A DNA stretch of 64,000 nt. Origin: a virus (Duplodnaviria; Heunggongvirae; Uroviricota; Caudoviricetes). Position 1 is the first letter of the stretch; each line of letters opens with the position of its first letter. This document shows positions 53,601 to 54,575 of the stretch, piece after piece. Both the position numbers and the translations under genes were made by a program. Below the pieces are notes generated by a model that searched no databases, was not told the DNA's origin, and saw only the letters and a program-made list of their open reading frames with translations. The stretch lies in IMG/VR virus record IMGVR_UViG_2823670853_000002; one strand, written 5' to 3'.

Positions 53601-54575
53601 TTATCCGTTACCGCGCGACGGTTTCTGCGTGACAAACGTCTCAAGCATCTTTTCCGCAATTGCCGACCAGGTGTGACACTGGACCTTTTCAGCATTTTTC
53701 ACGCGATCAACGCGAGCAATAACCTCATCCCAATCAATCCGCGACTTGATAACCATATGGTTCACCAAAGCCAGGCGATCTGGCGGAAGGCAATCGGGAG
53801 GCGTTAATACCAACGCCCCGCACATTGCCGCCTCAAGTACAGTTAATCCAAGGCTTTCGGGATGCGTAACGATAAACACGTCACTCTTACGCAATTCAGC
53901 TGCAAATTCGGTTGCTGGCACCGGCGTCCGTCTGTATGGAGTTACCGAAATATTCCCCGGATCAATGGTAACCAATCCGTCATCAGTCAACGTTCTGGCC
54001 TCATACGGAACGGTCAGACGCTGAAGGTTCATAAGGATACTTAAGGAGTGATCAAAACCACTAACATCAAATGCAGCGTGGTCTACAAAAATACGCAGAA
54101 CATCGTCTGTTTTGGTTTCCAGATGGAACAGATCCTGATTCGCTGCCCATCCAACATGTTTGTTAAAACGATTATGACGCTCTAACCTGCCTGGATTATC
54201 CAGGTACCGCCAGGTATCATCGCGGACAGTAAAAGTAATATCGACTGGTGCCGAATCCAGCATAGAACCGTCGTATACCTGGGCTACCCATCCAGTGAAT
54301 CGACGACGCAGTTGCACGCCTATTTCCCTGGGCACCGTAGTAAAATACCGCAATCCTGGCGCTAAAATGGCTTTCGCAGAACACGAGGTCGCAGCGGTCA
54401 ACACAGCTTCAACATAATCCTCCGGGCTTTCGACGCCGGGGGAATATGGACGATGGTATTGCAATGTTACCCCTGCCTCACTAAAGGCGCAGGCCAGGTT
54501 GTAAGCCCACATTTCCGTATATGTTTTCACATCACTGATAGCTTCAAATTTTCGCCCAATGATCAGGATGTTCAT
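53601..54575 (-). CDS. GT-B fold glycosyltransferase-like protein
   Basis: N-terminal NILIIG and C-terminal ESLGLTVLEAAMCGALVL (GT1/GT4-like motif); start at MNILIIG with GAGGAAAAG RBS; directly downstream of ban. Confidence 0.45.
   Translation of the reverse strand: MNILIIGRKFEAISDVKTYTEMWAYNLACAFSEAGVTLQYHRPYSPGVESPEDYVEAVLTAATSCSAKAILAPGLRYFTTVPREIGVQLRRRFTGWVAQVYDGSMLDSAPVDITFTVRDDTWRYLDNPGRLERHNRFNKHVGWAANQDLFHLETKTDDVLRIFVDHAAFDVSGFDHSLSILMNLQRLTVPYEARTLTDDGLVTIDPGNISVTPYRRTPVPATEFAAELRKSDVFIVTHPESLGLTVLEAAMCGALVLTPPDCLPPDRLALVNHMVIKSRIDWDEVIARVDRVKNAEKVQCHTWSAIAEKMLETFVTQKPSRGNG

Follow-up and report, generated by a model that had tools for sequence, protein, structure and literature searches.

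We report here on dbn, a gene of a tailed-phage record (Caudoviricetes; IMGVR_UViG_2823670853_000002, of which a stretch of 64,000 nucleotides, hereafter the window, was analysed), and on three further genes of the window, homologs of pmgO, pmgP and pmgQ of phage P1, with which dbn appears to form a conserved module of glycan-building enzymes. The open reading frame which an earlier inspection of the letters without database searches (the sequence-only reading) had marked out here is present and lies on the minus strand (Table 1). It is the ortholog of P1 dbn ("downstream of ban"): nucleotide identity is 96.8% over 999 bp with the P1 gene and 99.2% with the copy in RCS47, both with the same neighbours, and the product matches phrog_2518, a PHROG of unknown function, end to end (E 1.8e-239, residues 1-332 of 332), so that full-length match and ban-dbn-gene 5 synteny agree on membership of PHROG 2518. 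With P1 Dbn (AAQ14048) the protein shares 97% amino acid (aa) identity and nothing substantive differs; the window copy is nearest to those of RCS47 and SJ46. The window therefore derives from a P1-like phage-plasmid, and gene and prediction are already public. The P1 record of 2004 labels dbn "function unknown, possible glycosyltransferase"; P7 has glt, RCS47 "putative glycosyltransferase, Dbn", and RefSeq "glycosyltransferase family 4 protein". Both the gene and its glycosyltransferase prediction have thus been available for two decades and are not new; what is new here, as a modest lead, is the partnership of dbn with pmgO, pmgP and pmgQ as a conserved four-enzyme module.

Two start codons are credible for dbn. 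The ATG at 54575 is preceded by the ribosome-binding site that had been noted from the letters; the alternative ATG at 54599 overlaps the stop codon of ban (TAATG) and follows an AGAGGA of its own at a distance of 6 nt. Of 16 aligned homologs the majority start at or near the internal methionine (MK/NILIIG) and a few carry short, unconserved N-terminal extensions; the 8 extra residues of the longer form are unconserved and poorly modelled (mean predicted local distance difference test score, pLDDT, 62 for residues 1-10). For these reasons the start at 54575 is favoured. Annotated lengths vary by record (332 aa in P1, 287 aa in P7), and 324 aa is favoured for the window copy.

The fold of Dbn had to be assessed by structure comparison, since searches of its sequence against Protein Data Bank (PDB) chains (best E 0.24) and against NCBIfam (noise-level matches only) gave nothing significant. 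The one family profile to respond, Pfam Glycos_transf_1 (PF00534), scores 25.0 bits over aa 229-315 only, under its gathering threshold of 26.4 (E 1.5e-5); a precomputed PF00534 match is present for the near-identical cluster P0001 and some relatives, and two fusion relatives exceed the threshold (28.4-29.9 bits). An AlphaFold (AF2) model built on the homolog alignment (pLDDT 88.6, predicted template modelling score 0.85) has two strand-helix domains, each Rossmann-like (beta/alpha/beta), with a cleft between them, as in the glycosyltransferase (GT) fold GT-B. Top Foldseek matches in the PDB are all GT-B/GT4 enzymes: GlgM (E 1.8e-9), sucrose-phosphate synthase, PimB', BshA and GtfC; lipopolysaccharide (LPS) enzymes of the WaaG, WaaB and WaaC types are also among the solved structures matched. 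T4 alpha-glucosyltransferase (AGT; PDB 1y6f) ranks only 24th, under many generic GT4 enzymes. The sequence-only reading had proposed a GT-B fold with a GT4-type C-terminal motif, to be compared by profile and structure with GT4 and the T4 glucosyltransferases; fold and motif are borne out by the structural comparison, in which T4 AGT is the poorer match, and the Pfam profile stays below its cut-off.

The motif itself, ESLGLTVLEAAMCGALVL, spans aa 248-265 (332-aa numbering, used for all residues of Dbn here) and holds the E-x7-E pair of GT4 enzymes in the C-terminal domain, E248 and E256, within HPESLGLTVLEAA; the H-x-E-x7-E segment aligns with E281/E289 of WaaG. Among 71 homologs of 20-40% identity no variation occurs in a D-H pair (D173/H174), H246, E256 or G261, and at least 90% retain E248, S249, G251 and the GWAA segment. 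Compared with retaining GT4 enzymes (WaaG, PimA/PimB', BshA, GlgM, sucrose-phosphate synthase, glycogen synthase), Dbn shows just 9-15% identity, is shorter (about 320 aa versus 360-480 aa), aligns to PF00534 over its C-terminal third only and has family signatures of its own (GWAA, D-H). Model and conserved residues together make it very probable that Dbn is a GT-B glycosyltransferase. Its family is a small separate clade, with 376 members found in an exhaustive profile search of 1.84 billion representatives. Some members are fusions of 520-630 aa (P0110 with a C-terminal class I methyltransferase domain; P0099 with a second GT1-type region), and P0091 has an unannotated N-terminal extension of 218 aa; a domain scan of the fusion relatives gave no clue to the acceptor.

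It is most improbable that Dbn is a decayed, non-catalytic GT-B remnant without present function. Its dispensability in deletion and CRISPR interference (CRISPRi) experiments and the Pfam score would fit a remnant, but the confident and compact model, and catalytic-type residues invariant across the 71 divergent homologs, speak against it, as do the signs of maintenance in P1-like elements. There dbn is intact and full-length in 75 of 81 loci, the remaining six deviating only at the extreme 3' end, and the median ratio of nonsynonymous to synonymous substitution rates (dN/dS) is 0.116 (51 alleles; 48 divergent alleles). These figures describe P1-like loci; a scan of viral contigs with the family alignment returned 80, all 96-100% identical, which served the selection analysis and were uninformative on gene context. 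From intact copies, low dN/dS and invariant residues we take dbn to be maintained under purifying selection and presumably catalytic.

The partnership shows in phages other than P1. By direct phmmer test, homologs of PmgO, PmgP and PmgQ stand beside the Dbn homolog in seven of eight non-P1 loci. Four phages with lambda-type head genes (L005, L006, L091, L092) carry the Dbn homolog in a tight operon with overlapping stop and start codons, directly upstream of the terminase genes; the remaining genes of this operon belong to PHROGs 4603, 2111 and 1962, the pmgO, pmgP and pmgQ families of the window. Profile searches widened the association: in a myovirus (L098, 7593-11254) genes for a PmgO/P-like protein, an unknown 237-aa protein, a Dbn-like protein, a PmgQ-like protein and a Methyltransf_21 protein separate the tail sheath gene from the tail tube gene, and in L095 the Dbn-like gene is followed by one for a protein with a PmgQ-like domain. 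The lineage of Citrobacter-type plasmid-prophages of about 95 kb (L004, L093, L094) has PmgM, PmgO, PmgP, PmgQ and PmgS homologs 4.5-7 kb upstream of the Dbn homolog on the same strand, without ppp or ban. The module is also present in Stenotrophomonas jumbo phages, and all identified hosts are Gram-negative. In a phage with a T7-like terminase (L096) the Dbn-like gene lies beside lysis genes near the end of the contig, of which the 10.7 kb examined showed no partner gene.

Co-occurrence points the same way: among 50,697 phage genomes, 22 encode a Dbn homolog, and all 22 also encode PmgP and PmgQ, which occur in 27 and 31 records overall. The module is thus marked both by a conserved neighbourhood across unrelated phage backbones and by phyletic co-occurrence, and Dbn probably shares a pathway with PmgO, PmgP and PmgQ. 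The tail/baseplate operon divides the module in P1-like elements, with dbn closing the ban operon and pmgO-pmgP-(ppp)-pmgQ placed in the pmgL operon. The sequence-only reading had set other transferase-like genes about 6 kb away and treated them as separate; the distance holds (5.9-8.5 kb, to genes at 45107-47665), yet these genes are the conserved partners.

It is improbable that Dbn instead stands alone and acts on a host small molecule or protein (for example in anti-defence or metabolic takeover), its link with PmgO, PmgP and PmgQ being mere co-inheritance of cargo. Similar GT4 structures do act on small molecules (BshA, tetrahydrobiopterin glucosyltransferase, GlgM, sucrose-phosphate synthase), no shared phenotype of the four genes is known, and Dbn is separable, as in L096 and in five records with PmgP and PmgQ only; but the operon contiguity in four phages, the complete co-occurrence in the phage collection, and the recurrence of the pairing in unrelated phage backbones and in cellular capsule loci (see below) all argue for a common pathway.

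Further observations were made at these loci. L092 looks N15-like, judging from a 1313-aa gene together with Cro and Q; in L005 (5435-6004) and L092 (9435-10004) an extra protein of 189 aa with a weak Nucleotid_trans (GT-A-like) match is encoded between the PmgP and Dbn homologs, and this protein of the N15-like loci could be a fifth transferase absent from P1. In L004, L093 and L094 proteins of phrog_8514 and phrog_15291 precede the Dbn homolog, and a Rrf2-family regulator comes next. In phiNP the PmgP/PmgQ pair lies between the lysis genes and terS and is followed by an unannotated 213-aa protein, which may replace Dbn.

The partner proteins are classified as follows. PmgO and PmgP are paralogs with GSGPS and LxGxD motifs in common. 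By fold and by its GxGPS motif PmgO belongs with Maf/GT42-like proteins (MptE-like fold), and for PmgP a PDB profile search gave Cst-II sialyltransferases as best matches. Some relatives (an MptE-like neighbour and a PmgO homolog) bear the Pfam signature WaaZ_KDO_III. Compared with Maf flagellin glycosyltransferases, Cst-I/II (GT42) and WaaZ, PmgO and PmgP are minimal (about 180-210 aa), without the flanking domains of Maf, and the P1 proteins score below the Pfam MptE-like threshold. They are plausibly transferases of the CMP-Kdo (CMP, cytidine monophosphate) type; alternatively, they may have pyrophosphokinase activity. To our knowledge, CMP-Kdo is the sole CMP-ulosonic donor in E. coli K-12, and Kdo is for that reason suggested as the sugar. 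PmgQ has no Pfam match; its motif Y77-x-D79-x-D81-T82 is invariant in 8 homologs, and its profile matches the GT8-type Skp1 alpha-galactosyltransferase (PDB 6mw5; E 7.5e-6), with GT8 and glycogenin weaker, so that DXD motif and profile similarity both mark it as GT8-like. Earlier labels for the three genes were "putative morphogenetic function" in P1 and "head morphogenesis" (hdmB/C/D) in P7.

The pmgO and pmgP frames overlap by about 100 nt, and PmgO homologs (about 180-200 aa) align only from about residue 20 of the 220-aa open reading frame; the annotated pmgO start may therefore be too far upstream. The gene ppp is inserted between pmgP and pmgQ in P1-like elements only, no Ppp homolog was detected adjoining the module in the non-P1 loci, and ppp is probably not part of it.

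Table 1. Features of the window that bear on dbn and its partner genes.
Feature	Position	Strand	Remarks
dbn coding sequence	53601..54575	minus	324 aa from MNILIIG; predicted GT-B, GT4-like glycosyltransferase
dbn, longer form of the open reading frame	53601..54599	minus	332 aa
Shine-Dalgarno sequence GAGGA of dbn	54583..54587	minus	read off the sequence; 7-nt spacer to ATG 54575
ban (DnaB-like replicative helicase)	54599..55969	minus	open reading frame; annotated Ban in P1, P7 and RCS47; immediately upstream of dbn
gene 5 (baseplate)	52922..53554	plus	convergent to dbn, 46 bp apart
Bidirectional intrinsic-terminator hairpin, gene 5/dbn	53554..53580		11-bp GC-rich stem, T/A runs on both sides
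Bivalent C1 operator (Oban/Op72ab of P1)	58768..58795		one perfect and one 2-mismatch consensus match; position of Obanab in the P1 record
pmgO homolog	47003..47665	minus	Maf/GT42-sialyltransferase-like (MptE-like fold), putative CMP-ulosonic-acid transferase; PHROG 4603
pmgP homolog	46479..47105	minus	PmgO paralog; phrog_2111, E 2e-131
ppp (Ser/Thr phosphatase)	45805..46497	minus	Pfam Metallophos, E 9e-16; between pmgP and pmgQ
pmgQ homolog	45107..45808	minus	GT-A, GT8-like; phrog_1962 "glycosyltransferase", E 1.4e-127

Dbn lies directly downstream of ban and would be co-expressed with the ban operon, as had been read from the letters: it is the last gene of a C1-controlled transcription unit that comprises tRNA-Asn/Thr, tciA-C, tRNA(CAT), ban and dbn, with the bivalent operator at its head and a terminator right after dbn. 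The hairpin of that terminator folds with -17.6 kcal/mol (z -4.30; 0 of 200 shuffles equally stable); a scan for consensus promoters and terminators gave nothing above shuffle expectation and missed it. The baseplate spike gene which dbn had been said to abut is gene 5. The two genes are indeed close; they are convergent and separated by the terminator, and the abutment therefore implies no co-expression. The three tRNA genes of the unit, all on the minus strand (56244-56319, 57960-58035, 58038-58113), have the anticodons CAT (tRNA-Ile2 in P1; Met according to ARAGORN), TGT (Thr) and GTT (Asn).

The 17-bp consensus of the C1 operator has 15 matches in the window against 0.21 expected, about 70 times chance, among them 10680, 25529/25612, 42948, 45040/45089, 48714, 58768/58779 and 62055; these appear to map the C1 regulon of the P1-like element. 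The sites at 42948, 45040/45089 and 48714 lie near the pmg genes, the last of them in the pmgL promoter region. C1 operators thus precede both halves of the module, and by the P1 annotation dbn and pmgO-Q should therefore be silent in the lysogen and switched on in lytic growth. Enzymes of nucleic-acid type are also encoded in this late operon block, on the minus strand at 41159-42037, 42964-43470 and 47830-48408: a PAPS-reductase-domain protein (PmgT-like), a polynucleotide-kinase-phosphatase-type HAD protein (Pap) and a VRR-NUC nuclease-like protein (PmgM-like).

The position beside ban, which the sequence-only reading had taken as a functional clue, says little about function, because the adjacency is confined to the P1 group: on the contigs of divergent, non-P1 Dbn homologs (39-58% identity) a helicase neighbour was found in none. 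The link is positional only, and functional coupling of Dbn with Ban was rejected. This bears on the possible action on DNA that had also been raised, in which Dbn would glycosylate phage DNA against restriction as the T4 alpha- and beta-glucosyltransferases (AGT, BGT) do, coupled to replication with the helicase. We consider this very improbable. Its supports are the co-transcription of dbn with ban in P1 and the presence of VRR-NUC PmgM, PNKP-like Pap and PAPS-reductase-like PmgT in the neighbouring pmg operon. Against it, Dbn is no closer to T4 AGT or BGT than to generic GT-B enzymes, as the rank of AGT among the structural matches indicates; its conserved partners are glycan-building transferases, not base-modifying enzymes; and, in contrast to T4 AGT, it comes without an associated hydroxymethylation pathway. 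Digestion of P1 DNA with ordinary restriction enzymes is routine, classical host restriction also acts on it, and we know of no hydroxymethyl-pyrimidine pathway in P1 that could supply the acceptor. Deletion of dbn, moreover, leaves anti-restriction activity unchanged (PMC9024508).

In cellular genomes the Dbn family is rare, with 3 loci in a genome scan of 185,579 species. Two cellular members were examined, one on chromosome 3 of Brucella pseudogrignonensis (L089) and one in a metagenome-assembled genome (L097). In both, the Dbn-like gene comes directly after an MptE-like gene, within a locus of kps type (L089, 1862-11651; L097, 931-11990) that encodes an ABC-2 permease, an ABC ATPase, a Wzz/KpsE-like protein, Poly_export and a large GT1 protein; L097 additionally holds a KpsC/S-type Capsule_synth gene. 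The pair adjoins genes for the GT1 protein, of 708-734 aa, and for an unannotated protein of about 323 aa. The Dbn-like protein of L089 is 38% identical to that of the window. In contrast to these (group 2-like) ABC-transporter capsule loci, the phage modules lack transporter, Wzz/KpsE, Poly_export and KpsC/S genes, and no genes for sugar-nucleotide synthesis or export accompany them. Since the pair recurs in kps-type loci, it would also serve in surface-polysaccharide synthesis.

These loci favour a different acceptor for the same four-enzyme module, namely an envelope glycolipid (lipid A-core/LPS or a different lipid-linked glycan) on the cytoplasmic side of the inner membrane. The product would be exported by host MsbA/Lpt and the surface of the infected cell remodelled; as an example, the LPS-core glucose that is the P1 receptor would be masked, sparing progeny from loss on debris or already-infected cells. 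We regard this as a possible but rather unlikely explanation. Beyond the two cellular genes beside MptE-like genes, one of them near Capsule_synth, it draws on the WaaZ_KDO_III signature of an MptE-like neighbour and a PmgO homolog (WaaZ is the LPS KdoIII transferase); on the waa cluster of K-12, which uses the same three families (GT4 WaaG/WaaB, GT8 WaaO/WaaJ, and WaaZ); on the LPS enzymes among the structure matches of Dbn; on the phage module having no flippase or exporter, as fits a product that uses an existing host pathway; and on the Gram-negative hosts. Against it, the genes are C1-repressed or late, so that they are not lysogenic-conversion genes, and LPS made late would replace only part of the outer-membrane pool. 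Occurrence of the module in jumbo phages, in the phage with T7-like terminase and among the tail genes of L098 is hard to square with surface remodelling, and deletions have no plating phenotype. Profile similarity of PmgO/PmgP to WaaZ, and of PmgQ to WaaO, is weak and does not extend beyond motifs. When the family profiles were aligned with individual Waa proteins of K-12 in hhalign, only motifs matched, at probabilities of 4-18%, and Waa family membership is not claimed for Dbn or its partners. A comparison of isoelectric point and net charge, meant to tell membrane-associated from soluble enzymes, did not discriminate.

We tentatively propose instead that Dbn works in a glycan-building module whose acceptor is a phage (virion) protein. 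Dbn would be a cytoplasmic, retaining (E-x7-E) GT4-like enzyme using a nucleotide-sugar donor of the host; the module would consist of the Maf/sialyltransferase-like PmgO and PmgP, the GT8-like PmgQ, and Dbn, and would be accessory, C1-repressed and active in lytic growth. The glycan may be started by the Maf-like enzymes PmgO and PmgP, as O-glycosylation of a phage (virion) protein, an acceptor that is speculative. Dbn probably extends a sugar placed by a partner and would not be the initiator, because the acceptor-side motifs of its N-terminal domain are conserved between the phage and capsule-locus members. In favour of a protein acceptor, the module is found without exception in late or structural blocks (in L098 between the genes for sheath and tube; just before terS in L005, L091, L092 and phiNP), occurs in Stenotrophomonas jumbo phages as well as temperate phages, and would be silent in lysogens. 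Maf enzymes are protein glycosyltransferases able to transfer Kdo, according to a preprint (bioRxiv 10.1101/2020.06.03.131540). On balance we slightly favour a protein acceptor, with an envelope glycolipid close behind and DNA unlikely.

Several observations weigh against this proposal. Besides the sub-threshold Pfam score of Dbn, its nearest cellular homologs belong to capsule loci, whose acceptor is a lipid-linked glycan. The co-occurrence in the phage collection is inflated by near-identical records, 18 of the 22 Dbn-positive records being P1-like, and independent lineages number about six to eight with metagenomic loci included. The five records with PmgP and PmgQ and without detectable Dbn (OR339795, phi456; MZ188976, JK004; OR565852, phiNP; AP018399, XacN1; MN047793, Xoo-sp13) mark Dbn as an optional addition to the module. 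The 23 P1 virion proteins of published proteomics include none of the four, and that work reported no glycosylation, by a method unable to detect it. No phenotype links the four genes, since in-frame deletions of dbn, pmgO, pmgP and pmgQ leave plaquing and anti-restriction normal (PMC9024508) and CRISPRi knockdown is likewise neutral (PMC10695390). Literature on dbn, pmgO/P/Q and P1 glycosylation yielded essentiality and knockout tables only and no functional study; in keeping with what the sequence-only reading had stated, no paper was found that describes glycosylation of P1 virions or DNA.

In its most specific form, a self-contained system in P1 and scattered phages of Gram-negative bacteria (N15-like phage-plasmids, the myovirus L098 and Stenotrophomonas jumbo phages among them) that builds a short, possibly Kdo-initiated glycan on a virion protein late in infection, the proposal is a doubtful one at present. 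It has a likeness in mycobacteriophages, whose virions Freeman and colleagues reportedly found, in 2023, to be glycosylated by phage-encoded glycosyltransferases. Common to both would be several phage-encoded transferases in or near a late structural operon, dispensability for plaque formation and use of host donors; the hosts here differ in being Gram-negative, and the likeness is one of gene setting and not of demonstrated homology.

If the proposal is true, P1 would become the first classic coliphage with described virion glycosylation, in parallel with the glycosylated capsids of mycobacteriophages. Four P1 genes filed under "putative morphogenetic" or "function unknown" are now grouped as one conserved glycan-building module, in a workhorse phage in which each of the four has already been cleanly deleted in frame (Gonzales et al. 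2022). Should a glycan be found, phage-encoded glycosylation would reach beyond the DNA of T-even phages and the capsids of mycobacteriophages, and a positive result would bear on phage immunogenicity, on host range and on the engineering of P1-based delivery vehicles.

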